In this document: in pieces, positions 26,001 to 50,574 of the stretch
Layout: the number at the start of each line of letters is the position of its first letter
How positions within the stretch are numbered: position 1 is the first letter of the stretch
Position numbers and translations under genes: made by a program
The notes under the pieces: generated by a model
The model's input: only the letters and a program-made list of their open reading frames with translations
What the model was told of the DNA's origin: nothing
Databases searched by the model: none
Assembly: GCA_965153355.1 (NCBI GenBank)
Contig: OZ231126.1
Location: 9,672,001 to 9,736,000, forward strand
Length of the DNA stretch: 64,000 nt
Origin: Flaccisagitta enflata
Taxonomy: Eukaryota
Direction of reading: 5' to 3'

Positions 26001-29000
26001 TTTAGGAAAACGATTGTTGATAATCTGGTTGCTAGTGACGACGCCTCTATGCAAGAAAAACTAACGGCGTTAGTGTCTAGTAATGTCGAGGGAATGATCG
26101 AAGATACGATGTCGGTGATTGCGGGTTACGCGGAAAAAGTGTCCACTGTGGAAAAGCGCCAAAGGTTGCTCAAATTATGCAAAGGGCTGTTTCATGACAG
26201 AGATGCGAAAGAGAAGTTTGTTATGAGAGCGATCACCTCAAATGTTTTTAGAAGAGGCCGCATCAACATGGCAAATGCCATGAATCACAACGGCGGTTCT
26301 CCGTTCATCATTGTTGACGCCTTATTCTCGTGTTCCAACGACAAAGCAATTAAGAGAATTACCGACAAGTATGATTCGCGTGATATCGTCGGGGTTCTTG
26401 GTTTTATCGCCTCCAACTACAAGGAACCGGAAGAGATTCTTGCTAAATTGCGTCAGGAAAGTTGTTTCCAGCCGTGTGATGTCGTTAACAACACGCGATT
26501 CTGGGACCCCGTGAAACTTCGTCGTCTGATCGCCCTTGTTTGCCGCGTTCTGAGAATTGAACCGCCAGAAGATACGCGTCCTCTTTACATCGACGTCACA
26601 ATAGATGCGAGTATCCGTCAGTTCTTGAGCGGAAATTTGGAAGTGAGGGATTTCATTCCCATTTGCAAAAATGTTGTTGGCCACTCAGTAGGAAATTGGG
26701 ATTTGGTGCTCAGCCTCGTGCGCCGCAGCAGTGATGCACTAGCGGCCGCTGTTGCACCTTATGCCCAAAAAGAAGCTGAACCACTGGGCTATGATTTTGT
26801 ACCATCTTGTGCTTCGCCTTACAACACCAACCTCCACTCTCTTCCGCACTGCGAGGGTGATGTTGTGAATTCGACGGAAGAGGTGAAGAAGTTTGAGTCG
26901 TGTTTGCGCGACACAAATGTGTACGCTGTCGACGTGTTCGAGACAACGGACGTGGAGGACATTAGAGCGACAGTCGGACTCTGCACATTTGTCTTTAAGA
27001 ATGGAATCTTTTTCATGATGCCGCGATTGTACCCGGAACCGTTTGCCGCTGTGAAAGAAGCGCTCAGGAAAGATCGCCACCGCGTAATCAATTTGAAGTG
27101 GGAATTTGACGGCATCGCGTTTCGTAGGACTTTCGATTTTGAGCCTAAAGACGTCATCGACGTATGGACGATCGCGGAGAGACTGAACATTTCTAGGAAA
27201 TTCGATGTAATTTGCGAACGAGTCACGGTGGACCGTTCTGCCGTCGGGCATCGTTTTGTTCTGACTTTGCGCGTCCGTCAAAGAATGTCCTTGATCACAA
27301 AGCAGCCAGAACGTGTGTCGGATTTGTCTTTGGTATTGAGGAGATGAAGATAGATGAAAGGCTTGAGTATCCGGTCGAAAGGCATGCCAAGGATCTGGCG
27401 CCTTCACATTCAGACCAACAACGTGACTCTCCTCCGAGAAAGAAAGATAGGAAGGAGAAAAGGTCTGAATCACGTCGTCATGGCGATGCAGACGACGAGC
27501 GCCGCCGTTTGCGCAGACTGGAACGAGAAGAGGAAAGAGAAAGAAAATACGGGAGTGAACGCTTGAAAGAGAGGAGAAGCAGGAAGGAGAAGGAAAAGGA
27601 GGAGAAAGAGAGGGGTCGAGAAGACTCCAAGACCCGCAAAAGACGCGAGGCGTGGGAAAGAGACAGAGCAAGAGATGAGTCTATGGAACGACGCGGTTGG
27701 CGTTGCGATTATTAACTTTTTTTTTCTAACATTGCTAAATTTCATTTGTAAACTCGACATGATGTATGACATTCATTCTCTTTTTCTCTAACTCTTCCTC
27801 ATGCCTATGCTCGCCATGTCAGTAGACTGGATCGGGCCCTTTATTTTATCATGAATGTCATATCATCTTGTGTTTTTTTCGTAACTCTCGCATTTTTAAT
27901 CACTTCGCCACTTTACTCTTGTACTTTTTCGTGATTCCTGGTTTCCTCCTAAACATCGCTCAAGTTATTTTTTTTTTCTTCTTTCCGTTCTATTCTCGTC
28001 GCATTTTCTCACCTTACTCGTCACATATCTTTTCATACCAAAGTATTGATCCTCGATTTGTGTTGTTTGTTTTTGTTAATGTTTTTTTTTCCGCTTTAAA
28101 TATCCGTGTTTAGTTGATTTTCCCTATGCCCGTCATGCCTGTATGCACACAGGTACTGGGCTAGCCTACTCGCGTGATTTAATTTTTTTTTCTTGTTATT
28201 GTTGTTTGTTTGTTGTTCTTCCTTACATCGCCGACAATTTGAATTTTGTTGTTTACCTTTACAACGCCGACGGTGAGTTGACATTACGCGAAAGAGTATT
28301 TACGATCGTGATCGGAATTACGGGTTTCTTGAGTCTACGAAAGTGATATTTTTGTTATTTCCATCGACGTTACGGCTGTGATTTTGAAGCATTTAGTCTC
28401 ATTTTACGATTTGTTAACACTTTACGATTTTTGGTCAATGTTTTTTTTCTTCCAGACGAATATGTCCTCTTACTGCTTCCTGTGACTTGTTACTGCTCCC
28501 TTTTTCTTGTTTCGCTTGAGTTCCGTCGGGACGCCTTGAACAAGCGAGGGGAAGTATGTAAGAGAGGGATTTCTGATGGACATTGACAATCGATATTAAG
28601 TCTCAAAGATATATGCGTGTGGTGTATACTTTCATTATTGATGATGTTATCATTCATTCTATTAAACATTGAGTGTTATTAATTGATTACCGATTGAATA
28701 TCAATTGTTATTGATTACCCATCTGTCTCTCTTTCCATTCAGACAGATTCGGGGTCTCTGAAGGAGTGATATTCAATCGGGCCGCCTCTTATACATACTA
28801 CATCATATTCCATTTGACAGTCAGATAGCAATGAGTCCATTATCATCTATCATCGATCGCGAACATTATCAATTTGTAAAGACTCCTTGAATACGATAAA
28901 CATTGTGTATAGACTTCATGGAAACAATCGTTCACTGGAACAATCTCTGAACCTGATGCATTTGGACAATTATCCATTACACCTCATCTATGTGAGTAGG

Positions 29001-29996: not shown

Positions 29997-30703
29997 TTCT
30001 CGACCAGGGTCGAGTCTAAGGACGCCGATGTTAAGGGGGGAGATGGATAGGATCTGATAAAACGATAAACACCGCTAATCTAAATCAAATTTTTGGTCTT
30101 ACACGGCCAACATTGGCCAATAAAAAAAACGTTGTAAAAAGCGTGTAAACGAGTAAAAAAGCCAAAGTTAAGATTTAAAATTCAGAGGCGAAAACGCCAA
30201 TTTGCATCAACGTCGGGCGGCCTTATCTGTAAAAGCAATGCAGTTCACCCATTCCGCATCTCAGGGCAATGAATATCGGAGCATAATGCTTGGGATGCTG
30301 AACATCGTCGTTGAAACCGTAGATTTCAAGGCGTTCTAATTGAGTCAACTCGCGCTTGCAGCGGATGCTGAACGGTGGAAGCAACATGTCTTCCTCATCG
30401 CATTCCCCATTCGGTGCTGTTTTCGAATTCGGTGATGTCTTTTGTTTTACTGACTTTCTAAGCGGGTTTTTATTTAGGGTTAGGGGTAGGGTTAGGGTTA
30501 AGGTTGGGGATGGGGGTTGGTTTTAGGGTTAGGGTTAGGGTCAGAGCTATCGTTAGGGCAAGGTGAGAGCTGTGTTAGATACATTTCAACCCGAATCTAC
30601 TCGAATTAAAGCTTCGCCCAAACGGGGAAACCTGATAAAAACAAAAGATCAGTATCGTCTTCGAAATTTTTTCCCATCATTCAACTTGGCGAAAACCTCT
30701 AAG

Positions 30704-31450
30704 CAGAGGTGCCGATTCTGCAAAGCTGCCACGTAGCAAGAAAAATTGAGCCTAAGCTGCCGCACTTACGGCACAAGGCTAAGGGCTATGGTTTTCACAC
30801 TACAGACAAAAGTGAAATACAAGAAGTTAACCCCCCAAAAACTGTAGCACCCCCCCTACAGCTACAACCGCTGAATGAAGATTTGCATGTGAGATGGAGA
30901 ATAGAAGCTTATATCAATACAATTAGCCTCATCAGAGCGATTTTGGAATCTCATTCCCAGTAAAGAGTTACAGCTTAAAAACTAACTAAAATTAACACTT
31001 TTTGAATTATGCTAAAAATGCAATTTTTTACTAGTTTTTTAGCTATAACTTTTTACTGGGAATGAAATTCCAAAATCGCTCTGATGAGGCTAATTGTATT
31101 AATGTAAGCTTCCATTCCCCATCTTATACGTCTTTCTTCAATCTGCGGTTGAGGCTGTAGGGGGGGGTGCTTCAGTTTTTGGGGGGTTAACTTCTTGTAT
31201 TTCACTGTACTTTTTGTCACCCCCCACTTCCATACTACCAGATGTTGTGCTTGTTCCTATGTCATCTAAATAAGATCACTTTGACCATGACGCTAAATTT
31301 TAGCAAGAAACCGCTATTTTCCTTTCTTCCTTTTTTTTCTTTTTTTCTTTCTTTCTCTACCTTTTTTCTGTCTTCCACTTGGCCTGCCGCACTTAGGTGC
31401 TTGCCTGCCGCGTAGCATTGCTACCATGCTACACAGAATCGGCACGTCTG
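30704..31450. mobile_element. hAT-type MITE in paralog B
   Basis: TIRs cagaggtgccgattctg / cagaatcggcacgtctg. Perfect TSD cctctaag at 30696-30703 and 31451-31458. Confidence 0.9.
30811..31206. mobile_element. Palindromic MITE nested inside the hAT MITE
   Basis: agtgaaatacaagaagttaaccccccaaaaactg...cagtttttggggggttaacttcttgtatttcact; the arms pair over most of the length. Confidence 0.8.
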
Positions 31451-33121
31451 CCTCTAAGTACGTGATTGGGTCGCGATACCTATCGTATAAACTCGCCTTA
31501 TTCGAGTAATCGCGAAAATAGGACGAAAAATCGTCTTCGATCATCGGCAAATCGACCGATTCAGGATCAGGCATCTCATCTTCAAAGAGACGGAAACTGA
31601 AGATGCATTCCCTCAACTGTTTCCATCCAAAAAGAGCGGACACATCTGTCTCCCAATAAGCGTAAGAGCCAGAACGAATGCATTCTGCGATAAAACGTGG
31701 ACCGAATAAATCATCGGTTCGGTACTCAATCGACTTGAAAACTTCGATGAGTGGCAGTAGAGGGACTAGTTCCGCAAATCCGATCTTTTCAAGGAGGCGA
31801 GACCACACGATCAGGCTCGTGATGTTACGTAACGGAGTAAAAGCCGATTCCAGGAGCGAGTGCGACTCAAACGGCGAGTGAAAGCCGGTGACAGACACGC
31901 TTTGTAGCTGCCATGTTGTTGGAATCTGGCTTAAATAGCCGCTGAAGTAGGATTCATCAACCACAGCCAATTCGTAAGAGAACAAGGTTAGATGAGAGAC
32001 TTGATCCCAAAGCTGCATGACTTCAGGTAACCTGTCGGCGCAGTAAGGTCGAGAGGTGATGGAGATAGTCAAAGACTCAAGCTTCTGTTTGATTACGCCG
32101 TCAAGATTCAAAGCTTCATCGACCTCATTGTTGAAAAAATCTGAACAGTAATTGGGTCCGCGACGGAATTTTTTGCGAAAAATAAGAATTTTAATTAAAC
32201 GTTGGCGTAAAAGACAACAGATGTATGAAAAAATATAACTAACTTTTTGCATGAATGTCTTACTTTTTGAAAAATCTTTAAATTGTTGACACGGTATTGC
32301 GATAGATCAAACATATATTGACTAATGGCAGATTCGGTTTAAAATATGTGGCAATAAAAAAACTTACCAGTAAATTTTCAAAAAATACATTCAATAACAT
32401 GACAGGCAATTTTTTGACGTTGAAGGTATAAGACTTACCTTGTAATATAGATATGCAGTGAACTAAATACCCACACAATCGAGTGATATCCACAAGCATG
32501 GAGGTGGTTTGAAGATGCAGCCCATGAGTAAAGCAACTTGTTGATCATCAGAAGCATGGTAAAAGACCTCACATGAAATGAAGTAACATTTTGAGATAAT
32601 CAATTTTTGAATAAACAATAGCCAGCAGGTTGATTGCTGGATATTCAATGGGGATATTTTACACTGACAAAGAAATAATCTAGCAGGGTAACATATTGAC
32701 TACAAGGGCAAGATAAATTTAGCACTTCTAACCTTGGATGCTTACTTGAACTATGAGCATGTTATGAGGAGTGATAAGGTCGGTGTCACCAAGGAGAGAT
32801 GGTACCTGATATAAAAGAATGAATGTTTAGAAATAATTACAAATTATAAAACCAATCTGCTCAAACCTACAAAACAAGGTTTTACACAAAAATATATTGG
32901 CCTTTAAAAGAAAACCATAGCTATTATGTATTTACCTCAAGGAAAGGTCCACAATATAGGGGTCTATTATATAACCACAGGACAAGCATCTTGATAAACT
33001 CCATAAGTTGTTGAGGTTGATAAGAGGAAGTTGACGCAAGCAGATAAGGAATAAGAATGAAACAGAGCATGTGGGCAAAGATAGAAGGGAGAAAAGATGA
33101 CTTGAAAGAAAATGTGGGTTA

Positions 33122-33565
33122 GGAGCAAGGATGTCAAAGAGCAAGGATGTTGTAAGAGCAAGGATGGCGTGAGAGCAAGGATGTTGTAAGAGCGAGGATG
33201 GCGTAAGAGCGAGGATGGCGTAAGAGCGAGGATGGCGTAAGAGCAAGGATGGCGTAAGAGCAAGGATAGCGTAAGAGCAAGGATGGTGTAAGAGCAAGGA
33301 TGGCGTGAGAGCAAGGATGGCGTAAGAGCAAGAGCAAGAGAGAGCATGAGAGAGCAAGGATGGCGTAAGAGCAAGGATGGCGTAAGAGCAAGGATGGCGT
33401 AAGAGCAAAGATGGGGTAAGAGCAAGGATGGGGTAAGAGCAAGGATGGCGTAGGAGCAAGGATGGCCTAAGAGCAAGGATGGCGTAAGAGCAAGGATGGC
33501 GTAAGAGCAAGGATAGTGTAAGAGCAAGGATAGTGTAAGAGCAAGGATAGCGTAAGAGCAAGGAG
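33122..33565. repeat. 17-bp minisatellite (gagcaaggatggcgtaa) in the Helentron 3' region
   Basis: Visible tandem array. Confidence 0.9.
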
Positions 33566-33655
33566 GGCGAAGATGGAGAGAGCAATGAGAGAGCATGAGA
33601 GAGAGGGAGAGCAAAGAGAAATGTTCCGGAGGCAATCCCGGCAAGTAGCCTAAAG

Positions 33656-33918
33656 AGATACTGGAGACCATTAAGGTAACCAGTGATGTTGTCACAAGGA
33701 CAGAGCATCATAACTTCAATTTAAATTTTCCTGGATAAACCAGGGAAACAGGATTTTGTAGATACTGGAGACCATTAAGGTAACCAGTGATGTTGTCACA
33801 AGGACAGAGCATCATAACTTCAATTTAAATTTTCCTGGATAAACCAGGTAAACAGGATTTTGTAGATACTGGAGACCATTAAGGTAACCAGTGAGGTTGT
33901 CACAAGGACAGAGCATCA
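33656..33918. repeat. 104-bp tandem repeat, about 2.5 copies
   Basis: agatactggagaccattaagg at 33656, 33760 and 33864. Confidence 0.9.
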
Positions 33919-34255
33919 AACAATAATATAAATAAGACAAATATAAGATGATTAAGCAAGCACTCATACAAAAAAAAAACAAAAACAAAAAAATAAAAAA
34001 AACAAAAAAACAAATTGGCCTCCGCCAATTTAGCCCTGTCGGACAGAGTATGAGTGCCATTGCATTTTTCATAAAAACAAACTGAATGAATACTAATGAT
34101 TTCACCTATCCAGGTCTTAGGTATATGGTGATAAACAAATTTTATGCATGAAAAAAGGTGAAGAAGTGCAAATGATTTAGGGTTGAAATGAATAACGTAA
34201 CATTTTTGTTTACAAGGATTTTATCCAATGGCCTGGATAGTGTGAAAACATTAGT

Positions 34256-37200
34256 TCAGTTTTCCTTCTTCACAGACAAATAAATGGGTAAATGATCACT
34301 TTTTGTTAGTGTGTTTAATACACCAAACTGGATAAAGTTGGGGTTAATGTTGGTATAAATATGATCTAAAGTATTCTTTCTTAAATGAGTTGGGCCTGTG
34401 ATAAGTTGTTTAAGACCAAGGGTCTGCATAACTGAAGTAAATTCCTTGGGCATGTTTTCTGGGTTTTTATTAAAATCACCAAAAATGGCCATTTTGGTGA
34501 ATGGATCTGTATTTTCAAAAACTGTTGCAATCAGATTTGCTGCTCCTTTATACACATGAATAGAGCTTTCTGGCATGATGTAAAGAAAGAACAGAATTAT
34601 GTCACGAAATTGTTCATTTTCCTTATAAAAGTTTGGATATTTTGCTGTCACAATGACACCATTTTGAAGCAAGTTTTGGCCAAGATTTTGTGTTAAAGAA
34701 ATCTTTGAATACACAGCAACACTCAAAGATGGACGATCATTGCTAGAAAGATGCATACTAGGCTGACCAAATTCTTTCATTGGCATTGCCTTACCTTCTT
34801 GGAATCGCGTATCAACAATTCCAAAAATGCAACAACCTTTCACATTCCAGTCATTTTCCAGAGCAACAAGTTTCCCAATGACTGACTGGGAATTCATAAA
34901 TAATACTGAATTATATTCATCTTGCATGTCAAACAAGCAAGGCATTGTCACATCCAACTTACTATTCAAGCGTAATCTTTCCATTTCTTGTACGCATCGG
35001 ACATCATGACGAATCTTTGTTTCTGCCAGCCCTTCAGGTCCTAAAATAGAGACATTTGATTTTGAAGGACATCGTGAAAAGGCAACATAATGACAATGAG
35101 ATGTATGCCCTTTTCTATCTGAAAAGTCTACAACAATCTTTGTCAGAGTAGCACCTTGGGTTCTGTTCACAGTGCGAGCCTTGGCAGCTCGTAATGGAAA
35201 CTGTTTTCTTGTAAAATATTTGGACTTACATGGTATTGACTGACGTAAAACCGGCAACCAATTCTTGGGAATTGAACTGTCATACAAAAATTGGTAGGTT
35301 TGACGCCAAAGTCTTCCTACCCTGGCATCTTGAGGATCGACCCAAACTATGTCACCCTTGCTTGAGTTTTTTGTGTATTTTTTGGCAATGCAGGGAGTAC
35401 CATTGGTTATCCCATCATTGGTATCAAGGTTACTGGTAAAGTCATACTCATGGTCAATGGCCAAATTTAGTTTAGCAGGTAGATTCTGCACTTCCCCTCT
35501 TCCAATTGAGGCGATATTGCAATCAATGGTATCAGGAGATACAGGAGCATTTGCTGCATGTTTATCATCAGCTGGTATGACAAACCTGTTCTCAGGAGGT
35601 GCCGATAAAAACCAACTGTTATTGATTGTATCACATCTATCATTAGTTAATGTTATGTAATTAGCATCTGGAATGATTGGGCTATCTCTAGGTATGATTT
35701 GCTCACTTATGTATGTTTTATCAATATCGCCCAAAGGAGCCTCACGCAGTCTATTAAGAAATTGAGCCCATTGCTTTTCATCTCGTTGTCTCATAATTTC
35801 ATCAAGTTCAAACATCTTTATTTCTTCTTCCCAAAGATTAAAAGCCAAAGGCCGACCGTTAATTTGGGAATGAGCATCAATGCTTTGCATTTGCCATACT
35901 GGCCTACCTTTAACAGGAAGTAACTGAAACACATCCCCAACAGCCAAAACATGAACACCACCAAATGGAACATCATCCCGTTCCTTAATTCTACGTAATC
36001 TTTGATCCATATCAATCCACATTTCATTATCCACCATACTGATTTCATCACATATGAGGACTTTTAAGTCACCCAATTTGGCTTGTAACTCTGCTAACTT
36101 ACTTCCTGTAAGTTGCTCTCGCTTTTTTTGAGTGCCAAATGGCATTTTAAACAGGGTGTTAATGGTGTGACCACGAACTTGATGACTAGCCTTTCCAGTA
36201 AAGGCACACTTTACTATGTGAAGAGCTGAATGATCAAGTCCAGGAACACTGTTAAAATACCTTTTAGCTGCTTCGTACAGAACATTGACGGCAGTTGTTT
36301 TTCCAACACCAGCCCCCCCAGATAAGAACCAGAGGATTTGATCACCGTTTGATCCTTGTTTCAATCTATGTAAAAAGAAGTTGACAAATTGAAACTGCTT
36401 CTTATTCAATTTGGCAGCTTCCTTGTGAAAAAAACTTTCAGACCACTCATCATCATAATGATATGATCTTGAAAGTAAAGCACTAGGAATTCGTTCAGGC
36501 AAAGGTAAGTTCTGTTCAGCAACTTGTTGTTGCCTCACACTGTCTCCATGAGCCTGTACAACGCCAGGGGCTAAATCTGCCATAACTAAATTATCCCCAT
36601 CATCATCAGGATGTGTTGTGATATTCTCTAGACCTCGAAATTCAGATTCATACTTTGAGTAAATAGACCGTTGTTGATCGACATAGTCTTTTACTTCTTG
36701 ATAACGCTCTTTATATGTTTCAAAATTTCCTTTCAAATCAGAAATGTTGCGAAAAGGATAAAAAAGCAATAGTAGTTCACGATAATGCTCTTCTTCCTGC
36801 GTCTCAACATTAAAGTTGATGTAACGAATAATTCTTGGTTTCTTTCGTTTGCTTAAACCATTCAATTTAATACAAGAAGCCTCTGATGGAGGTTCATCAT
36901 CATCCACTTGCTCACTCTCTTTTTCTTCAGCAAATTCTTCAGAGGGGTCCATATTCCTAAGTGCTTTGTGATATGAACCCAGCCCATCATAATAAGCAAC
37001 ATATTCAGCCAAGCAAATGTTTTTCAAACTATTTGGTCTCTCCATGTACCGGTCAGTGCTGTTTTTTACAAATATGTCTGTATCTTCATCATCCATATCC
37101 ATATATTCAGATTCAGATTTACACAACTTTGCCGAGTCTTCAGCAGTAGGTATAAAGACTACTGCATTGGAACTGTTGTACAATTGGATACCCAACATAT

Positions 37201-40200
37201 AGTAGGCAGCCTCTTGCGCTCCAGTTTCAACATAATCTATGAATCTATTAGCTATGTGTCTAACTGATGCTTTATGATTCATTTGTTTGAATGCCGCCTC
37301 TTTACTTGCCACACGTAATGTTTCAGAGAGCCCACGTTCCCCTTTAGTTACATAGTCAAGAATGTATGCAGCAGCAGCATAGCCATTTACGACATATTGA
37401 CAATCCATATTAGCCTTCCACACAGCAAGACATTGGGGATTGTAAGAATTGATCCATCTCTGATCTAAAGTTCTTTTCAAAAATACAGTATCAACATGTA
37501 TAGAACTTCTTATGGCATTGATATAATCAATATATGACATGTCTAGATACTTTATGAAATCCAACATGGATTGCATTTTATGATTTTGAGGTTGTTCAGA
37601 CCAATTGTTCAAGGTCTCTTCAATCTTTTTGAAATTAGTCTTGTGTCTGCTCATTTCTTGTAGTTGGGAACTTGTAAGAGGTTTCTCTTTTGTTCCTTTT
37701 TCAAATGGGAGTAAAATTGTAGTTTTGTCCATGGGTGGTTTGGGAAAATTAAAACGACAAACTTTACCTTTTTGGGGGCAAGTGCGAGTGTGTCTGTGAG
37801 TCTGACGAGCTATCAATTGTTTCCGTTCGTCAATGCTTAAGAAAGAAATGTTGTTCAAATCATCAGAGCAAGTGACAAATTTATCTACATAGGCAGAAAC
37901 TTGCTCCTCTGAATCTAAACCCAAGACAGGCGCATCTTTCATCCAAAGAAGACAGTGAAGATGGGGTGATCCACGATTTTGGAATTCAACCCGATAGAAA
38001 AATTCTTTCATTTCACCCAAAGGACCCTGGGGTGAACCAAGAAATTCTGAAAATAAAACACGAGTGCGATGATTAAAGTGCCTAGCACATGTTACTGGAT
38101 CAGCCAAGATCAACCTCTTTTTCTCCTTTGCGTCCATATTTTCAATTTCTGCATCAGTATATTCCTTCTTGTCAATCAAACGTCCCAAATTACGTAGCAA
38201 ATCAGTCCATTGATTTTCAGCTGCAGTAAAAGTACAAAAGAAAGTGGGTTTACCATGAAAACGCATCATGGCAAACAAGTTTTTCTTTATCTTTTCAAAG
38301 TAAGCTGGACTACCCCTAACAGATTTTAGGAATTTGTAGCCCTCATTGTGGTGTAAAATATTTTCTTTATTCAGTTTTAAGTCCTTTGCAGTGTAAGTAG
38401 ACCCATCTTTTTTCACTACTTTTCTTAGAGAAACCATTTCAAGATCAGCCAATAATTTGATCATAGATTTTCGGGTCTTAAAAAATAAATTTTCATGGTG
38501 TCTTGCAAATCTTCTATTCTTATGACGAAGTTCCCACTTACAAATTTTATGATAACTAACAGGTATTTTTGTCTTAGAACGAGGTTTCCCTCCAAAAAGA
38601 CTACAATAAGTCATTTCTTCAGCATGCTTATCCATGAATGGATTTCTTGGTTTTTGATTTTCACTTGGAGCAACAGACAGGATATTATCCCATTTTTCTG
38701 CTCTCTTATTCTTTTTTGAGATACAGCATTTTTCACTTCTAAATCAGATACTAATTCTCTATTTGTTAGCATAGTGGTGAATAAGCCATCAGGGGATGGT
38801 TCCTCCTCACTTGCATGTTCTTCATCATCATCAAAATATGAACTAAAATCGAATAATTTACCCAACCAAGGAAATTTTTTGTTTGCCTTTTCCACCGGTT
38901 TGTCAGTTAAATTATATGCAAACAATAAATCCCTCGTAGTAGCATCAGGCTTTATTGATTGCATTCTCTCGCGCATTTTTTCTGGCTTGAAGCGAACATG
39001 ACATGGGTCACCATTCATTGCAACAACCTGAAAAGTTGCTAAAGCAAAAAGGGCATGATTAAAATAGGGCTGTGAAGTTTGAGGACAACAAACTTTTATT
39101 TTAGGCAGACCCTTATACAGTTTGTTAAGTTGTGCATTTAATTCCCTAACCATTTCTTGCAAATGGCCAGGGAAATGGTTAGAGTCATAAACCACAATAC
39201 ATCTCTCATTTTCGAAAAAATGATGAGAGACAACATAATGACGCGTTTTTGGTAAGTAATGCAACAGAACAGTTTTTTCTGAACTTTCAGGAGGCACAAA
39301 ATCAGGAAACCAATCATCTAGATTGGCGCCTGCACCTAATTGGGCCAAACTGAGAGGTGACAAAAAATGATCAGTTTCAATACTGTCTACAAACATATTT
39401 TTCATCATCAAGTCAACATACTTTTCAACATACTCTACTTCAATGTGTCCTTTTGATTCTATCATACCAAAGGATACAGTTGATGAGTCCTCCTTAAGCC
39501 TTTGAAATTTATCTATTTCATCATTAGAAGGCAAAACTGGCGCAGTTGCCGCTTGTGGACATTCTGAATTAGTCTCTTTATATGATGAAGTAAAGGTTGA
39601 AAAACCCAAGTCATCAAGGCATTCAGTGGTTTCCATCTCAATGTCAGAACCAGAGCTTTCAGAGTCAACAGTCAAAGCTTCTATGCCATCATCTTCAAGT
39701 TCATCTTTAACATCAACAACTTCAAAAGTGTTTTGTTTAACTTTTTTTTCTTCAAGATTAGACGGAGTATCACTAAATGCCTCAGTAAATTTTGGCACAG
39801 AATTGTCAGAACTGTCATTAGATTCATCAAGGTCAATAATGGAAGTCGATATTACATGATCAGTTTCATCATCACTGTCAAGGTTAATTATTTTCAAAAT
39901 AGCAAAATTGCACACCTTCAACTCCTCAAGAGAAAACTCTAAAAGGGCATCATTGATACGAAATCTAGTGCCATGCACCTCCAATTCATAATCTCCACAA
40001 ATGTCAAAATCAAACTTCACACTATCTGGGTCAAGTCCCAAGAGAAAATCCCCAATAGTTAGACTGTTAACAGTACCTTCCAAAGAAAAGACTCTACTCA
40101 AATTTTTAGAGTCCAAAAAACAAAGATCGATGCTATTGTTTATTTCTTTTGATTTTAAGAAGCAGACTGACCCATCATTTATTCCAGCAATATCAGACAA

Positions 40201-43200
40201 TGATTGTTGATCATCCGTCAAATTGATCACACAAGAACCACCACAAAGAAAAGTTGGATTTTTAAGGTCAGATATATGGAGGGCTTCAAGTTTATCTCTT
40301 ATCAATTTAGTTGACGCACCAACAGGCACTTGCAAACAAACAGCAGATTTTTCATTGCCAGGGTAAACGCAAATGTTCAAATTTCTAGGTTGCCCACCAT
40401 TTTGCAGGCTTCTTGGGATTATGTATTGATGGCAATCAATTAAAGAAAAATTATCAATTCCCAATTCAGCCAAAGTTAACAAGTCATCCAAGGATTGCAC
40501 ATGGTCAGCGGTACCCGATGCCCTGCTTGGAGTATAGCTGAAGAGAGTAGAGCAGCGCCCCAGGGCCGATGTCCTGTAGGAACAGTGGTGAACCATTACA
40601 TCCGCTCCTGACAAGGTTGATGGCCTTGAATTGATAATAAACCAACAAGAAGTTGGATTTTTGGGCTGATTTGGGCTTGAGAATTTACAATTTGTTGGGC
40701 CCAGAGGCATTGCCTCAAAGAGGCTGATTTTTTTGAGTGGGTGGGCTTGGAGAGGCTAGGGGCCCACCTTTGAGGCCTCTTGGGACACGTATTGATGGCA
40801 CAATGTAAAGAGGACATCGTCCCTTTGGGGCCGCTGCCCAAAAAGGACTTATCATAAGGAATTGGGTTTTGATCATTTATTTTGTAAAATTGACATGCCT
40901 CCATGCTTGGTATGAACAAACATGGAGAAAAATCACTGAAACTCTTCATAACATTTGCTAGAGCTTCATAGATATCGTAGATGGTAATCTCATCTGGCTC
41001 GCCATCAACAAATACTTGATGACCAGATAGAGGGAGACGCAGCCAAAAGCAACTCTGCTCAAGTTGGTAACTGTGAACAAGATGTACAACGCTACCATCT
41101 AGAATTCCCAAATCCTTAATAGGTTTCTGAGGGGAATGAACAAACAGTTTAATTGCAAGATTAGCATTTCTCAGATAAAAATCATTATTAAACTCATGAG
41201 GTTGAAAAACAGACCTCACCATTTCAACAAGAGAACCTACCGAATCATGAATATTGATGTAGTTAAAGTGAACCCATCTATCAGCATAGCATATTGAAAA
41301 AGACATGGTCTCATCCTTTGCGACCTGCTCCTCTTCTGGAATAGGTTTTGAATAATGGGGCCCAACATTATCATTATTTTCTTGTATAAATTCTTCAGTC
41401 AAATCAGTTTGAAATTGAGAAGGGTCCCAATTTTCATCAAATGTGATTCCCAAATTTTTATATAAGGGTGTGCATGCCAAAGCCTTGGCTGCCTTTGCGA
41501 CTAAATCAGGTCTTATGGTGCTAGATATGTGGGCTTTTTTGTCAGATAGCCTTCGTTTCAGATCCAGACGAATAACCTGGGCCAAACTTTCGTTACAAGG
41601 GACAGTCATTTTAGATCTCAGTGCATGAATCGATTGTTGAGGGTTAGCAGGAACCAAAACCAAATTACCTCTTACATACTTCTCGCCACTAACAGGTTTG
41701 GGATGCATCCAAATAAAGACTTGTCTAGGAGCCAACAAACGCAGTTCTAAATCATTCAATCCTTTCAATTCATCAGGAATATCATTCATGCGCAAATCAT
41801 TCAATGGTGAAAGTGGAGGAATTTTGGCAAAATCATTTTTTGCATTCTTTTTATTCAGATAACTGTAACAAGTATTACAAATGAACTTCATCCCATGCAA
41901 TCGCCGTCTTGCCCCAGAGTAAGGGTAAAACAATTGCTCACAAATTTTGCAATCTAACAAACCCATGTGAAATTTCTTATTAATCAATTTATACATCACA
42001 TTAAAAGTTCTAGAAGCAAAATTACGTTTCTTAGCATATGTTGTTGGATTAGCAAAATATTTCCTTGCATTTCTTGCAAGCTGACGTGCCTGATTTTTTC
42101 TAGCCAATTCATTCTTATAGTATTCTTGATCTTTCCTTTTTTCAGCTTTTTTAGTTCTTTCAACTTCTCTCACATTAGGATCCAACCTTTTCATTTTTTT
42201 TGCCTCTTTTTCTTTAATAAGAAAACTTTCATCTTTTCTTTTTGCTCTCTTTGCTTCTTTTTCTTGAATAAGAAAACTTTCATCTTTTCTTTTTGCTCTC
42301 TTTGCTTCTTTTTCTTGGTTGAGATATTTTTGATCTTTTCTTTTTTCTCTCTTTGCTTCTTTTTCTTGAATAAGAAAACTTTCATCTTTTCTTTTTGCTC
42401 TCTTTGCTTCTTTTTCTTGGTTGAGATATTTTTCATCTTTTCTTTTTTCTCTCTTTGCTTCTTTTTCTTGGTTAAGAAAACTTTTTTCTTTTCTTTTTTC
42501 TCTCATTGCTATGATTTCTTTTTTCAAGTAAGTTTTATCTTTTCTTTTTTCTCGTTTTGCTTCTTTTTCTTGGTTAAGAAAACTTTTTTCTTTCCTTTTA
42601 TTTCTCATTGCTGTCAAATTTTTAAGCCTTTTTCTAAGAGACAAACTAAGCTTGATGTGTGATTTTTGATGCAAAACCAAAAAATTCAATCTGGCAAATT
42701 CCTGACCACAAGTGGTACACTTCCAAATGGATGCTTTTTTAGGGGGAGGTGGAGTTTCTTTTACAGTCTTTTCTTTAACACTTGGCTTTGAATGGACCAT
42801 ATTCTTATGGCGAGTCAAATATCGCTGATTTTTGAAATCTTTTTTGCAAATTTCGCAAGTCTTATTGTTATGAGATCGCTTATGATTTGTCAATGCTACT
42901 TTAGTGTCAGCTACAAACAAACAATTGGGAAAATCACATTTCAGATTATTTTCCTTAAACACTTTATCTTTTTTTGATTGATCAAGCAAATATTTATCCA
43001 TCAGTGAAGATTCCAAAAAAGTTACTAATTCAGGGTGCTTTTTTGAATTGTGCGCATGCAACTCGCGTTTAGATGGGAAGCAGAGATGGCACTTTTCACA
43101 TAAATGCTTCTCCTTCGCACCACCTCTAAGACCTAGAGAATGAATAAATATGACACCATTATGTGAGATAGGATAATCATGCAGGCGAGATTTTGAAAAA

Positions 43201-44729
43201 AGTGGTTTGCTTTTGTGAGTCAAAAAAAAATCTTTTAACTCAAATTGATCAACCAAAAATTGTGTCAGATTCTCTACACTGGCACATTTTCCAATATGCA
43301 AACTAGATCTTTCAAGAGAAAAGGAATCACTCTTCAAGAAAACCTGTATAACTTTTCCACACAGATGAGGAATGTTTGGTTCAGAACTCAAGTTCATATA
43401 ATTGCAAAACGCACACTCAAGATGCCTCTGTAATCGTTTCCCCTTGAACAAAGGCCTCTGGGAAAATTCATGGACCTCCTCATCACAACAATGAGCAACA
43501 CTTTCTGAATTGATATTTCCTGAGCCATAGAGACCAAAGCCCTCAACACCAAAGGAAAAATTATCACCTTTGATGTCAACAGATGATGGCTCCTTTGATT
43601 TACCTTGATTTACCTTGCTAGGGTTGGTTGAAGATACCTGTGGGACAGAAGCCCGAAAGAGACGTTCATAAGGTGGAACATCAATACCACGCTCCTTGCG
43701 CTTCTTCTCTTTCTCTTGCTTCTCTCGTTCTTGCTGAGGGCTTCTGCCAATACCTCCCGTTTTCTTGGGTCTTGGTGATTTTGACCGTGGTTGCGGCAAG
43801 TGGTTGGGCTGAGAAAAACAAAAATTGGGATCGAGATCAGCAGAGGGCCACAACCATTCATTCTTCTTTTTTGTACGTGGCTTCTTCTTCCGAATAAGGC
43901 AGTACTGTTTTACTTTTGCCTCAGACTTGGGAACAGATTGAGCCTTTGCCTTCAAAGGGCCCCTGAATGAAATATCCTGTGAAAGAACGCAATTGTGAAT
44001 AAAGAGATTATTGTTTTGGACAGTCTTCATCCTTGGTTTGACTGTTGGAACAGGAACCTGTGGCTGAAAAGAAAAAGAGCCAGAACTTTTGGGTAAGGGG
44101 GGGAAATCAGAAAGATTGAGAGAAAATGAAGGTCGAGAATTAATGATAAAGTTAACCATTTCTACCTTCCCCTCGTCAGACAAGTGCAAACCATCATCCC
44201 AAAGCAATGATGACCAAATGTGGTCTGATGGTGAGATAACATGACGCACCTTGTTCCCATGGCATGGACAAACTGAAAGGCAGCACTGATAAAGAGAAAT
44301 GGCTTCATTAGTTTTGTCAATCCAGTCTTTATCTTTCATGGTCGAAAAGTGTTCATAGTCACGCTTGGATACTTCTCTGTGAGGAACTGGGGCAAGCACG
44401 ACATTGGCATCAGGATGGCGAGTAGAAAAAAGGTGAAGGTTTGTTCGAGCCACTTTTGCAATTTCCTTCGCTATCATAATAGGGGTGGTTTCTCTGGAGC
44501 GATTAAAATCATTTGCACCAGCCACAACAAATACAAAGTCATAAGATTTCTCATCCATATGAGCATCACCTCTTCCTCCAACACCAAGCAAATCTTCAAT
44601 CGTTTCACCACCATGAGATTCCACATCAAGTGACTTAAGCTTAAATTCTTTAATTAATGCTTTTTTAGCCTCATCTGGAGTTTCTCTCATGAGACTATCT
44701 GAAAGAATTAATCCATCCATCGCAACCAT
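34256..44729 (-). pseudogene. Helentron Rep/Helicase/Endonuclease polyprotein (~3,370 aa reconstructed), broken by one insertion and one frameshift
   Basis: Rep: FFCTFTA, RVEFQNRGSPHLHCLLW, YILDYVTK. PIF1 helicase: GGAGVGKT, ICDEISMV, GDVFQLLPV, QFPL, YVAFSR. EEP: GDFN, LDHIYTN, SDHLP. N-terminal SGNH, Ubl, C2H2, DUF6570-like and Ulp1-like regions. Confidence 0.9.
40480..40844 (-). mobile_element. 365-bp HINE-like element (family A) inserted in the Helentron ORF
   Basis: Matches the repeat starting near 8069 (caagtcatccaaggattgcacatggtcagcggtacccgatgccc). Removal restores the frame YDKS|LTLAELGI. Confidence 0.9.
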
Positions 44730-45063
44730 AAATCATACAAACTTGGTAATGGAAACACTTGACCTGATATTGGATTTGACTGGAGATGAGATTTGAGTAA
44801 GCACTATCAATGAGGCACCAGCGATCAGCGTCCAGATCCTGAAACCAGGTCATATAAATAAATAAATAAATAAATAAATAAAAGGAAATAGAATCATTAT
44901 GTGAGTGATGCATGAAACCACAAGATATTACCTGATTACCATGTAACAGTAAATAGCTATATTAAAAGTTATTCAGAGAAGCTGATTGTCTGCACATTCT
45001 TTACCAATGAATGTGTTGATATATACACCTACCTGGCCACCAGCAAATGAAAGAGAAGGCAAA

Positions 45064-45422
45064 GGATGAACAAAGCAAGGACGACGGGATCCAGATCCTG
45101 AGAGAAGGTGAAAGCGCGTTTCAATGAAATGAAAGATTAAATACCATAATGTCAACTTAATTGAAAACCAGTTAATGAAAGAAATGAATTGTGATTCACA
45201 CCTACCAGGGCCAACAGCAACAAAAGAAGGGATGATGGAAGATGGAGGATGAAGGGGAAGGCAATGGATGAACAAAGCAAGGATGACGGAATCCAGATCC
45301 TGAGAGAAGGTGAAAGCGCATTTAAATGAAATGAAAGATAAGATACCATAATGTCAACTTAATTCAAAATCAGTTAATGAAAGAAATGAATTGTGATTCA
45401 CACCTACCAGGGCCAACAGCAA
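45064..45422. repeat. ~200-bp tandem duplication upstream of the Helentron ORF
   Basis: ggatgaacaaagcaagga...cacctaccagggccaacagcaa occurs twice. Confidence 0.8.
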
Positions 45423-45974
45423 GGGGAGAATGCAGGATGGAGGGGAGGATGACGAGATGAAGGATGCCACACGAGAAGAACAACGACGACGATTCAATGA
45501 AACAAAGTTTCTCTGAGAAGCTTTTTCTATCTAGCGAACTGAGATAAAATTGTTATGGTGAGAGAAAACAAGGCTATTGATCATTAATCAAAGAATCGAC
45601 AAAATAGCTAGAAAAACAAAAGGAATAATGAATATTGGAGACTGAAAAGAATTTTTTGGCATCAAGAGTCAGCACAACAGCTAAAAAATCAACCTAAAAA
45701 AATAGGAATGTGAATAAAACATAATTAACTAGAAATACTTCATTCTAGGTAAAGAAAAAAAAAGAAACGTTAAAATTCCAGGTTGGCTACGATGATAAAT
45801 TTAATAAATTAGATCACACATATACAACTCTTTATGGTTCACAATTCATAGTTTACAGTTCATAGACAAACTACAGAAGCTTCATGCTAAGATTGTAAGG
45901 TAGTAATGTACAGTAAAAGTAATTGGCCAGTTTGCTAAAGCCGCTTACAAATGTTCAGTTGTTCCATCTGTAGT

Positions 45975-46700
45975 TTTCACACCAAGTTTCAGGCTAATTG
46001 GTTGAAAAATAGCCAAGTTATCCTCATTTTCTCTTTTAGGCGGGTTGGTTGGGTAGCTGATTAGTTTGGTTAGTTGGCATGCTCAAATGCTAATAACTCA
46101 AAAACAAGTGTGAATTTCTTCAACTTTAAGCCTCCATACCAAGTTTCAAGCAAATTGTTTGAAAAATAGCAGAGTTATGCAAGTTTTTCACTTTTAGATG
46201 GTTTGGTCGGTTTGGTCGGTTTGGTGGTTGGCTGGTTTAGCCAGTTAACATGCTCAAATGCACATAAATCACATACATGTGCCACGTCCTTCCATTTTGA
46301 GTCTCTATACCAAGTTATAAATTAATTGGTTAAAAAAAAGCAGTGTTTTTCCGTTTTCTACTTTAAGGCTAGTAGGCTGGTTGGGTGGTAGGCTGGTTTA
46401 ACAGGATAAATAGTTTGCATATGTTGAGTTCTTCCATTTAGAGACTCCATACCAAGTTTCAACCAAATCAGTTGAAAAATGACAAAGTTATGCAAGTTTT
46501 TTACTTTTAGGCTGGTTGGCTGGTTGGGTGGTAGGTCAGTTTGGCCGGTTAGCATGCTCAAATGCATATAAATCATATACATATGTTGAGTCCTTCCATT
46601 TAGAGACTCCATACCAAATTTCAGCCAAATTGGTTGAAAAATGCCAAAGTTATGCACGTTTTTCACTTTTAGGCCGGTAGGCTGGCTTTGGCTGGGTTGG
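45975..46700. repeat. Diverged ~150-170-bp tandem units in the Helentron 5' region
   Basis: Recurring ccataccaagtttca...gttgaaaaat...agttatgca...cacttttagg. Confidence 0.75.
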
Positions 46701-47445: not shown

Positions 47446-47598
47446 CTGTGTAGTGTTTAGGCCATTTTCATCGCTGCTATGGGCCGGAGCAAGGGGGAGA
47501 CTCTCTAGGTCCCTGCAGTGCTGATCTAAAAACTTGAGGAGTCGCGAAAGTTCAGACTCCTCATGCTTATGTTCATGATTAGGATCATCTTGTTCATA

Positions 47599-48203
47599 AC
47601 CATGCCAAAGAAAAAAATTGCACACTTACCTTTAAATGCATACCAAATCGCTCTCTGTATAGTAAACTGTAAAAAATTGGTGACCGTTAGAAAGATATTC
47701 AAAAATTCTTCAAAACTAGACCAAGCAGAATGCTGTAACTTTTTTTGTTTTAAAATGACAACTAAATGAAGTTAATAACTCCATTTCCCTCAAAACCAAT
47801 CAATCAACCATAAGAATTTTCCTCTTTTTCCTATGTATTAACGTAAATACTGACCTAAATTTAAAAAAATTTATGAGGGAAAAAAAATTTAGAAAATTTT
47901 CTTCAAAATGGCGCCAAGCAGAAATTTGTAACTTAAACCGTTTAGAAGTTATGATTAAATGAAAGAGAAAGGTACAGTTCTAAGGGATGTGTGAAAACGC
48001 TCTTTCTGGCAGTAAGCAGAAGTGACAAATTTACTTCATATCATTGTAATTTTTAAAGTTTTTGAGCTACAACGCTCTGACACCACTCAATTGATAGATT
48101 TTTTGAAGCTCTTTAAAATGCTCACTGATTTTTTATAGTTTCACCTCCTATGAACGAACCAAGAGTCCTCAAAAAGTTGTGCAATTTTTTTTTTTGGCAT
48201 GGT
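47599..48203. mobile_element. TA-flanked MITE in paralog B coding sequence
   Basis: TIRs accatgccaaa..aaattgcac / gtgcaattt..ttggcatggt with TA on both sides. Removal makes paralog B exactly collinear with A. Confidence 0.8.
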
Positions 48204-50574
48204 TAACCATCATCATCAGTATCGTAACATCCAGAATCATCATGTAGGGAGATGAACCCCAAATGAAGAGATTGAAGACATCAAGGCATTGAGGTTGCGG
48301 CATCCAAGTCCGCAGTTTTCCACAATTGGTCAGCCGGTTTGTTTCTCAAATCATCTCCCAGCTTGCTAGATAACTGGTGGATTCCAAAATCAGGAAGACA
48401 ATTAGTCACTCACAAAGTATCGTTAAGGCTCATTTCTTTGCTGTGAATTTTTAAAAATAAAATAACTCAGTAAGGAAATGGCTTCAATTTTACAACCTCA
48501 GAAAAAGTTTACTCGTCCTTAAAAACCAAGGGGTGTAAGTTTCAATAATACAAAGATATGTTCCAATGTAAAATATTACATAGTCAAAGAATATTTAAAA
48601 AATATTATCATTCAACTGAGATGCGATCACGGGACTAGAGCCTAGTGTAAAATGAATCCAAGTGATTTCAGAACCCACCAAATGCCTATTTCTTTTTCTT
48701 ACTTCGTTCTTTCCAAACCAACGACTATGCTGTGAGTAAATGGCTCCGATTTTGAGTATTTGCAAGGTTGGGTAGTTGAGCAAAACATGCTCAATATCTA
48801 AATAGCTCAGCACCGCCAATTCCAAATGTGCCAACTGAGACACGACTGTGGGATGAGAAGCACGAGTAGAGTGAATCGGAATGAGACCGCGAGATATTGG
48901 CTCGTGGCAAGCGCAAATCTCCATGTCGAGGATGAGATGCTTTAAAGAACTGCCGTCGGCGATTTGGCAGATGCGTCCCAGCCAACATGGAACGGAAGCT
49001 CGCCAATAACGCGCATTTGCCGCCGGAATGAAGACCTTCAATTTCTCCAATTCTGGACAGACTCGAAATAACGCCTTTAATCCATCGGTGGTGGGCTCAT
49101 AACCGCGCGGTAAAGTGAGAGTTGTAAGTTGATTTAGACCAGCTTCTGCGATCGTCTTGTCGAAAAGATCACGCTTTAGAGGGTCCCAGTCCAAGGTGGC
49201 TCCGGATAAATCCAAATCTCGCAATTGGGCATTGGAAGCGAGGATGCTTTTAATCTGCATCAAGGGAAACGCGTCATGCACTTGGTTAACTTCAGCACCG
49301 GCGGGCATTTGAACGGGAAAGGAGCTAGAAGTCAGCTTCACTTTGTCGATCCCGGAGAGGTAGACGAAATCATCGATCGAACCGTCTTCATGGCAAATGT
49401 AGTTCTGCCCCAAATGTAAAGAGCGCCATCTCGGTGAAGCCATCAAATGACTTCGCCATCGACGACAGACGCCAGCGCAACGAAGAATGTCTTCCAACGA
49501 AAGGAAATCGAAAATGGCGGTCAAAACGAGGTCTGGGAGTTGGTTGGCGGCGGACACAATGTCTGAATCTTCATTGGCCATCGAAGAGGTAGAGATGTCG
49601 GAAAGGCTTAAAGACTTTATTTTGAAATATAGAGCGTAATCTAGGTCGTCGTAGAATGCCAGGATGGTGTCGCAATTGTTATCAACTGTCGAGTTGGAGG
49701 ATGGATCGGAAAAGTCGTTGCTTGAAAATTCATCCTCGGAACTAACTTCATCGGACGTTGAATTGAAGATGTTGAGAAGGTAGTTGGCCATGGACATGAC
49801 TTCTGTTTGAGGTAGGTCTCCGCCACCCTCTGCCATCGGTATGGTAGAAATTCTATGGTGGTGGCTGGCTTCAGACATTTCGAGACTGTTTTCATGTTTG
49901 TTCATGAGATTCATATTGATAAAAAGGTACCTTCAGCCATTAGGGCTAATGATAAACGAAAAGGAAGTCGGATAAAATTTCAACCCAAAATGTGGACCAG
50001 GAGAAATCAATAAAACATGATTATAACATAAATGAACGCTATCTTATGATCATAAGCTATTCTTTGCGGTCTGTACTTTATTGTTGTAAACTTACTATGA
50101 AATGAACTTTAATTCCAAAGCTTTTTGCAACGAAATGAGTAAAAAAATGATTTTGCTCCAAAGGCAAATGATCCCTTTTTCAGGGTGTCGATGGCGAACA
50201 CAGACGTCAAGAAACCATCGGGGCCGGGGCACTACTTAGGAATTAGAACAAGAGAGCCACAATGGCAAAGCTTCTTGGAAACACGTGAGGATTAAAGACA
50301 GAAATGATCCACACATCGGCGATTCTGTTTCCGGGCAAAAATAAGTGAAGTAAAACAGAAGGGGGAGGGGGCGAGCTGATAAAATGATAAAAAATACAGT
50401 AACCCGGCGATACAATATCGTTGCGGACGGATGGGCAAGGGGGCACGACCCCGGCCCCTTCATACACATAAAAAGCAAAAAAAAAAAAAAGAAACTTCTT
50501 TTAATAAAATAACATGAGACGCGTGAAATCGAATAGACTGTCGAAACTTAGACTTTAGAGAAAAATAAAACGCG

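Follow-up and report, generated by a model that had tools for sequence, protein, structure and literature searches.

A probable Helentron polyprotein gene of Flaccisagitta enflata, broken at two sites and encoding predicted SGNH esterase and ubiquitin-like Gly-Gly domains

Three long open reading frames (ORFs) lie on the minus strand of a 64,000-nucleotide (nt) stretch of the Flaccisagitta enflata genome (assembly GCA_965153355.1, contig OZ231126.1, positions 9,672,001 to 9,736,000; hereafter the window, to which all coordinates refer), and they raise the question of whether they are separate genes or the pieces of one, and what so long a protein would contain. Our analysis indicates that the locus is probably an autonomous Helentron (an HLE2 rolling-circle transposon) whose single ancestral gene was broken by the insertion of a 365-bp repeat and by a one-base shift. 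Its polyprotein begins with an SGNH esterase, a ubiquitin-like domain ending in Gly-Gly (Ubl-GG), four C2H2 fingers, Lys/Glu-rich (K/E) repeats, DUF6570 and ~350 unassigned amino acids (aa), and proceeds with an acidic linker, a predicted CE-clan pseudo-protease, an HUH Rep, a PIF1 helicase and a predicted apurinic/apyrimidinic (AP) endonuclease (EN). The restored gene measures ~3,368 codons, and since it carries just two lesions and no stop codon, this copy was inactivated recently.

One gene in three pieces

Read from stop to stop, the three ORFs occupy 40596-44732 (1378 codons), 38611-40755 (714) and 34256-38743 (1495), with no internal stop in any of them; shuffling the same 10.5 kb 200 times gave longest ORFs of 114 codons on average and 176 at most. 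The pieces and the breaks between them are listed below, with protein relatives cited by number (P0155, P0167 and so on).

44729-40845, minus strand: first ORF piece, starting at the SGNH domain and ending at the insertion, 1,295 codons uninterrupted
40480-40844, no strand assigned: nested interspersed repeat of 365 bp that splits the ORF and, in plus orientation, terminates in ...CCCAAAAA
40479 to ~38712, minus strand: second ORF piece, from the insertion to the A6 run
38712-38717, minus strand: A6 run (T6 on the plus strand) in a Lys-rich hinge, site of the one-base frame shift, placed by the frames, the homopolymer runs, P0155 and P0167
~38717 to 34259, minus strand: third ORF piece, the frame of Rep, PIF1 and EN

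In the databases searched, the closest relatives are unnamed fragments or entries called 'hypothetical protein' on short metagenome contigs, and a search of metagenome and viral contigs for related loci returned nothing. P0167 lies on a 10.9-kb metagenome contig as one ORF of 2,075 codons. It aligns colinearly with this copy (36-46% identity), matching residues 4-1257 of the first ORF and residues 257-584 of the 622-aa second ORF as counted after the insertion (46%, E 4e-83). Its order begins with SGNH, linker, CxxC, Ubl-GG, fingers, K/E repeats, DUF6570 and U1-U2 (the first of four stretches, U1-U4, that follow DUF6570 in this copy); after these come two C48-like domains, an acidic linker, a Cys-less domain and a Lys-rich hinge.

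At the first break, removal of the 365 nt brings 40845 and 40479 into one frame by simple arithmetic, as an original prediction made from the letters of the window had proposed, and both P0006 (449 aa) and P0167 lack the repeat and run in an uninterrupted frame through the homologous point. The inserted segment resembles other parts of the same window: 40478-40638 is 84% identical to 8067-8249, and the terminal 18-mer has an exact copy at 7895-7912 (3 matches versus 0.03 expected). Its GC content is 50.7%, against 36-37% in the coding flanks, and an Rfam scan in and near the insertion found nothing, nor was there a short interspersed nuclear element (SINE) head of tRNA-like type. If the segment were an intron, or were spliced out like one, the first join would need no repair, and 143 in-frame combinations of GT or GC with AG do exist arithmetically, for example GT 40848 with AG 40523 (326 nt), at the cost of 14 extra residues. 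However, the borders that restore the homologous junction lack GT...AG and none of the 143 pairs restores that junction; moreover, the segment belongs to a repeat family present elsewhere in the window, stands 14 GC points above its flanks, and sits where the relatives' ORFs are uninterrupted at the DNA level. On these grounds we rejected an intron-like gap, and we regard splicing here as scarcely credible. As a separate observation, the window is purine-rich at 6600-8400 and holds several fragments of the insertion's repeat family there, in both orientations.

At the second break, a single base separates the frames of the second and third ORFs, and neither frame meets a stop over 38614-38743. 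P0155 (817 aa) reads in a single frame (...SDLEVKNVIKK...KETWDDILSVAPSE...) from the end of its second-ORF homologue into Rep, and ...AVSAKKKNKKA... of P0167 aligns with ...AVSQK and KNKRA... on the two sides of the break in this copy. Because P0167 lines up exactly across the run at 38712-38717, the placement of the one-base repair near this T6, which links the second ORF to the Rep frame, was right. A 26-nt 'intron' over the A6 run would also restore the frame, and was rejected since residues conserved in the relatives would be lost. The proposal that the three ORFs are pieces of one Helentron polyprotein of ~3,370 aa is therefore backed by relatives at both joins, with P0006 and P0167 continuous at the first and P0155 at the second, rather than keeping the ORFs apart there.

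The remainder of the third ORF identifies the element.

34259..38717, minus strand: Rep, PIF1 helicase and predicted C-terminal AP-type endonuclease, recognized by Pfam, motifs and colinearity with Helentron proteins

Rep matches Pfam Helitron_like_N (104.3 bits, E 1.2e-29), and its translation contains ..SPHLHCLLW.. and ..YILDY.., which we take to be the HUH motif and the two-Tyr motif, respectively. PIF1 lies C-terminal to Rep (Pfam, 70.5 bits, 2e-19) with Walker A GGAGVGKT and Walker B LICDE. Rep, helicase and endonuclease are the machinery of rolling-circle transposition. The third ORF is colinear with Helentron proteins of 1,700-2,500 aa, and the EN region stays colinear right up to its last residues with relatives in which EN exceeds the Pfam cutoff (P0115, 45.5 bits). 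We identify the element as a Helentron because of its Pfam matches to Helitron_like_N, PIF1, EN and DUF6570 together with this colinearity; DUF6570 has been reported as HLE2-specific (PMC11417382).

Several observations weigh against this reading of the locus. A search for proteins of more than 2,268 aa sharing the N-terminal region found none, so that no full-length intact polyprotein was seen, and P0167 ends at the hinge, before Rep. The three-part call of Rep, PIF1 and an endonuclease/exonuclease/phosphatase (EEP) domain drew Pfam matches throughout, but that of EN to Exo_endo_phos_2, at 20.2-23.7 bits (E 5.6e-4; 4.6e-5), falls short of the cutoff of 27.4, and a sequence search of the PDB gave no match for EN. 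Subterminal inverted repeats, 5' and 3', were sought between the flanks and none were found, which leaves the ends of the element undefined. Finally, of four sequences that extend over the hinge, all but P0155 break there (this copy, P0154 and P0167), with P0154 reading ..KKNMG and P0167 ..EKWRSVG before a stop, a pattern not obviously expected from simple decay.

The breaks at the hinge could have two other origins. Programmed frameshifting is used in gag-pol and in bacterial IS3 elements, and the Lys- and A-rich hinge could likewise house a programmed -1 frameshift or slippage site that fixes how much accessory protein is made relative to full-length transposase. The frame changes or stops in the three sequences fall within ~20 codons of the same place, the shift required here is -1, and the site contains AAAAAAG. 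Yet P0155 passes the hinge in one frame, the phasing in the incoming frame is CAA-AAA-AGA instead of the canonical X-XXY-YYZ, the three breaks differ in position and frame, and indels ordinarily concentrate in the A-runs of decaying copies, homopolymers being error-prone in assemblies as well; we consider such programming improbable. Alternatively, the shift at 38712-38717 may be an assembly or sequencing error, in which case the 365-bp insertion alone would have broken this copy. A single-base difference in an A6/T6 run, with the downstream frame intact for 1,486 codons, fits an error of this kind; P0154 counts against it indirectly, by showing that real or apparent indels recur in this hinge, and we judge an error unlikely, though less so than programmed frameshifting. 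For the recurrent breaks, indels in the A-runs of decaying copies are the simplest account, and we retain the single broken gene as our reading of the locus.

Domains of the polyprotein

From the N-terminus to the start of Rep, the features of the polyprotein are as follows.

44114..44729, minus strand: SGNH (GDSL-type) esterase domain, predicted, residues ~1-205 (Pfam, conserved blocks, PDB profile)
43416..44113, minus strand: basic Pro-rich linker, residues ~206-438, with no domain and no Pfam match, 37% identical to P0167 over its length
43116..43415, minus strand: CxxC knuckle and ubiquitin-like beta-grasp domain, residues 439-538, ending in ...GLRGG followed by A (AlphaFold2, Foldseek, PDB profile)
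42645..43115, minus strand: four C2H2 zinc fingers, residues ~539-695 (Pfam zf-C2H2, 40.3 bits on the segment, cutoff 25.2)
42199..42612, minus strand: Lys/Glu-rich tandem repeat of 17 aa (51 nt) in 8.1 copies (Tandem Repeats Finder, period 51, 82% matches)
41430..41834, minus strand: DUF6570, residues ~966-1100 (Pfam PF20209, 39 bits, cutoff 24.3, E 1.3e-9; 78% identity to P0167)
40845..41309, minus strand: U1-U2a, unassigned, residues ~1141-1295, conserved in P0006 and P0167
39484..40479, minus strand: rest of U2, U3 and U4 (unassigned) and acidic linker, with no Pfam or PDB matches and model pLDDT (predicted local distance difference test) of 22-51
38806..39483, minus strand: predicted CE-clan (Ulp1/C48-like) pseudo-protease, His, Asp and Gln kept, His at the Cys position (..PQTSQPYFNHALF..)

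The N-terminal SGNH hydrolase that had been predicted was recovered by profile, as was the Ubl ending in LRGG, so that neither of these N-terminal domains failed the searches. Residues 1-220 alone match Pfam Lipase_GDSL_2 just above the cutoff (33.2 bits against 32.9, E 9.3e-8), and the same family is matched in 11 of 14 aligned relatives; the relatives begin at the second Met, at 44720. The blocks LSDS, G, GANDF (with N73 invariant) and DGLHL are conserved across the 14 sequences and supply the Ser, Gly, Asn and Asp-x-x-His of SGNH blocks I, II, III and V, which predicts an esterase. A profile of the domain against the PDB matches SGNH proteins, including 2hsj (8.7e-4) and PatB, the best being a PAF-acetylhydrolase-like protein.

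The Ubl domain comprises 80 residues that follow the basic linker and the CxxC knuckle. Its AlphaFold2 model (12-row alignment) reaches a pLDDT of 83.1 and a predicted template modelling score (pTM) of 0.76, with the layout beta-beta-alpha-beta-beta-3(10)-beta and a floppy tail at positions 97-102 (the RGGAKE end; pLDDT <50). Foldseek of this model against the PDB gave 292 matches at E<=0.001, headed by FAT10, ubiquitin and ISG15 (TM-score, TMt, 0.78-0.85; root-mean-square deviation 1.6-2.5 A; ~20% identity), and among the matches listed nearly all are ubiquitin, ISG15, FAT10 or Ubl-domain entries. A sequence profile built from six Ubl domains points the same way, with 27 of 27 PDB matches (E<=10) being ubiquitin or Ubl in register with ubiquitin (Ub) 43-76; the E-values for single domains are weak (0.03-0.3), and that for polyubiquitin (4.7e-9) is a sum over nine repeats. 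LRGG, at residues 534-537, aligns with Ub 73-76. All 13 relatives that carry the domain end it in GG[A/G], with the first C2H2 finger 2-9 residues later, and P0182, a fourth SGNH protein, has a divergent end (...LLLGG followed by K). As modelled, then, the Helentron polyprotein contains a ubiquitin fold with a flexible Gly-Gly tail.

Downstream, the four C2H2 fingers appear both as C-x2-4-C...H-x3-5-H patterns in the translation and in Pfam, and the DUF6570-like region is likewise matched by its Pfam family. The charged repeats between them are present as predicted, with a unit of 17 aa instead of the 15 aa first proposed; many Helentron relatives also have a similar K/E-rich stretch ahead of DUF6570.

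The modules named so far could still belong to two genes, SGNH-Ubl being a host gene that was captured, stands on its own 5' of the transposase gene and forms no part of the polyprotein. In fish, the multi-exon gene texim lies 0-3 kb upstream of Helitron coding regions (PMC4021074), and among 198 relatives 59 have SGNH and only 2 of these have Ubl as well, most relatives being short contigs. Against two genes, a single 1,295-codon ORF holds everything from SGNH and Ubl through the fingers and repeats to DUF6570 here (log10 P about -41 by composition), and the same modules lie in one 2,075-codon ORF in P0167; of the three SGNH proteins with at least 330 aa downstream, two have Ubl by profile and the third a divergent LLLGG. 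A captured neighbour is in our view highly improbable, and we continue with SGNH and Ubl-GG as modules of the Helentron gene. Further relatives carry parts of the same series: P0005 and P0197 have SGNH or an SGNH tail, then Ubl-GG and fingers, and P0176 has Ubl-GG, fingers, repeats, DUF6570 and the start of a C48-like domain. In P0063 (596 aa), a C48-like domain (hhalign 98.3% versus the C48-like domains of P0167) lies directly N-terminal of Ubl-GG, at the position that SGNH takes in this element.

DUF6570 and Rep are ~850 aa apart here, versus 156-240 in four long Helentron relatives. The interval was originally read as a train of ~4 Ubl domains, beginning with the units now called U1-U2a, and this did not hold. 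U1-U4 have no Pfam match at E<=10 and no match to a hidden Markov model (HMM) of Ubl-GG, hhalign against the Ubl-GG profile gives a probability below 4% throughout, and PDB profile searches returned nothing. Only one pair, U1 and U3, is alike (27.6% over 58 aa, in register, E 0.011 in a tiny database). U1 and U2a are conserved in P0006 and P0167 at 39% and 22% identity, respectively, and in place of the stretch equivalent to 39484-40479 P0167 carries its two C48-like domains. A model of the second ORF, which covers U3 and U4, was built on a 3-row alignment and has a pLDDT of 29.9; it contains a beta-beta-alpha-beta pattern in U3/U4 at a pLDDT of 22-51 and is unusable. U1-U4 may be small beta-rich domains. 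Searched singly against the PDB, the sequences of the first and second ORFs and of the EN domain returned zinc-finger or chance matches only.

Directly before the hinge and Rep lies the domain described as Ulp1-like. It aligns as a putative homologue with the C48-like domains of P0167: hhalign of four sequences against these two Cys-bearing domains gave a probability of 64% (E 6.5e-5) with 106 columns in register. In the P0167 domains, H, D, Q and C follow one another as in C48 (..NGSDCG.., ..FSNDCG..), and the direct matches of these domains are weak (SENP1, E 0.24-0.38; RickCE_cat, E 0.0044). In the Flaccisagitta domain, however, the nucleophilic Cys is replaced by His, and the His-for-Cys motif is invariant in all four sequences that have the domain (this copy, P0154, P0155 and P0167). 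Given His at the catalytic Cys position, we name the domain a predicted CE-clan-like pseudo-protease and not Ulp1. It has no direct Pfam or PDB match, and its model has a pLDDT of about 30-47.

A candidate cleavage junction and its relation to known elements

What could a Gly-Gly-ending ubiquitin fold do in the interior of a transposon protein? Ubiquitin- and Ubl-specific proteases cleave after GG, as in natural ubiquitin fusion precursors. By analogy with these, Ubl-GG may be a protease-cut junction, a cleavage cassette inside the Helentron polyprotein, a reading that we consider plausible if slightly short of probable. We favour it because the conserved flexible GG of a ubiquitin fold sits in frame between the enzyme and the DNA-binding part, because relatives have intact C48-like domains in the same polyprotein as Ubl-GG, and because three lineages (P0167, P0176 and P0063) combine Ubl-GG with C48-like domains. 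A protease would cut after the GG of the internal Ubl; in relatives this enzyme would be the element's own C48-like domains, and in this lineage, which has the Cys-less copy only, it would be of the host or be supplied in trans. The cut would detach SGNH-Ubl, as a protein of its own, from the remainder of the chain with its DNA-binding and transposase domains. Cleavage by the element's own protease is countered by the replacement of Cys by His in all four sequences, which leaves this lineage without an intact C48 domain, and by the C48-like domain of P0063, which likewise lacks Cys and has Gln instead.

A wider version, in which a Helentron lineage with its own Ubl 'cut here' cassette and CE-clan proteases forms a self-processing transposon polyprotein, is speculative and somewhat unlikely. 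If it were true, the OTU, VTD, UCH and C48 domains of Helentrons may serve partly to process the element's own Ubl junctions, instead of or besides countering host ubiquitination; the Cys-less copy beside Rep would be a Ubl-binding module, and the recurrent break in the A-rich hinge could give the element another, translational means of setting how much transposase is made.

Ubiquitin-system domains are themselves no novelty in these elements. Helentron deubiquitinase (DUB) domains (VTD, OTU) have been described and shown to be active, with targets still speculative (PMC9741609), and HELIANO gives 20 recurrent extra domains that include OTU, UCH, Peptidase_C48, Herpes_teg_N and DUF6570 (PMC11417382). 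Elements of this kind share with the present one DUF6570, Rep, PIF1 and a C-terminal AP endonuclease (predicted in this copy) in one long ORF, as well as N-terminal accessory domains from the ubiquitin system (PMC9741609, PMC11417382, PMC4067079). The difference lies at the N-terminus: the Helentron relatives P0044, P0105 and P0115 begin with OTU or Herpes_teg_N, whereas this element begins with SGNH and Ubl-GG, which is substrate-like and not a DUB. An in-frame Ubl-GG would offer a concrete target for such proteases as the Helentron DUB domains.

Esterases near or within mobile elements also have precedents. In several fish, the coding regions of Helitrons have the SGNH gene texim immediately on their 5' side, and it was interpreted in 2014 as having been captured (PMC4021074). 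Like the present domain, texim is an SGNH of the PAF-acetylhydrolase/CR1-esterase type directly 5' of a Helitron coding region; it is a separate multi-exon gene by its published description, on which this comparison is based, whereas here and in P0167 SGNH is in frame and followed by Ubl-GG (PMC4021074). The fish texim genes may accordingly be the first module of a Helentron gene and not captured host genes. GDSL esterases occur in rotifer Terminons (PMC6431247), and the ORF1 esterase of ZfL2-1, a long interspersed nuclear element (LINE), hydrolyses esters and binds phospholipids (PMC3905857). CR1/L2-type LINE ORF1 esterases such as that of ZfL2-1 are transposon-encoded SGNH acetylesterases, as the present domain may be, and provide the sole functional lead (PMC3905857); by this analogy the Helentron esterase probably acts on lipids or membranes. 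ZfL2-1 differs in element class and has no Ubl after its esterase, and its chain is not among the PDB profile matches at E<=1.

Among fusions with a ubiquitin fold, polyubiquitin and Ub-ribosomal precursors likewise place a GG-ending beta-grasp in frame with a downstream protein, and the eS31 type is among our profile matches. The Helentron Ubl differs in being ~20% identical to ubiquitin and internal, ~450 residues into the protein, and its cleavage is a matter of analogy. That transposons do use in-frame separators is documented by the 2A-type sequences of LINE ORFs (PMC3708506). In the literature searched on Helentrons, Helitrons and ubiquitin, we found no Ubl domain described in Helentron-type elements, and GDSL, lipase, SGNH and esterase are absent from the main text of HELIANO (PMC11417382). 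The combination of esterase and multi-ubiquitin module first put forward as new was thus framed too broadly, given the published texim gene (PMC4021074) and ubiquitin-system domains (PMC9741609, PMC11417382), but its core stands: the in-frame SGNH and Ubl-GG cassette appears to be undescribed within that literature. The practical value is modest and lies in better annotation of very long transposon ORFs in the genomes and metagenomes of marine eukaryotes.

Element ends and genomic surroundings

Helentrons are reported to insert in TT and to have subterminal inverted repeats and a 3' palindrome, and tandem repeats have been noted as well (PMC4067079). One structure past the stop codon of the third ORF is a candidate for the 3' end.

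33968..34050, minus strand: hairpin AAATTGGC-GGAG-GCCAATTT followed by a T-rich run, candidate 3' subterminal structure, ~210 nt past the stop

The DNA fold of the 151-nt stretch with this hairpin has z = -3.47. Just 3' of the hairpin and T-run are a 17-nt tandem array (27 copies, 33123-33573) and a 104-nt repeat (2.5 copies, 33656-33918), and 5' of the first ORF are a 202-nt repeat (1.9 copies, 45047-45422) and a repeat family of ~160 nt (45936-46685).

Several of the relatives carry the label 'merc', a marine eukaryote metatranscriptome assembly; this is a lead only, a hint of transcription and not evidence of it. In DNA runs labelled marine metagenome the fraction of sampled words present reaches 0.69, and in two metatranscriptome runs it is 0.31 and 0.21, again as a lead only and not as evidence of habitat or expression.

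In the window, the Helentron lies among F-box gene paralogues, beside a CEP76-like ORF and a gypsy-type retroelement, with tandem arrays on both sides. Diverged direct repeats (74-87% identity) flank it, pairing 30222-31865 with 50595-51192 and 48215-48394 with 51790-51975, and overlap F-box-type ORFs; they look like a tandem gene family into which the Helentron inserted. On the plus strand, a 1652-codon ORF at 17863-22821 with RVT_1, RNase H and integrase is the pol of a gypsy-type long terminal repeat (LTR) retrotransposon, and a 1083-codon ORF at 24096-27347 has no Pfam match at E<=0.001. An interstitial array of ~11 telomere-type TTAGGG repeats is found at 30474-30541. The near-perfect palindrome at 30811-31206, with arms of 158 nt (82% complementary) and an outer 46 nt (98%), has the look of a foldback element or a miniature inverted-repeat transposable element (MITE), and its Rfam matches to plant miRNAs are far under the gathering score. 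A pair of 28-nt inverted repeats at 47597-48205 (96% complementary, 553 nt apart) is also MITE-like.

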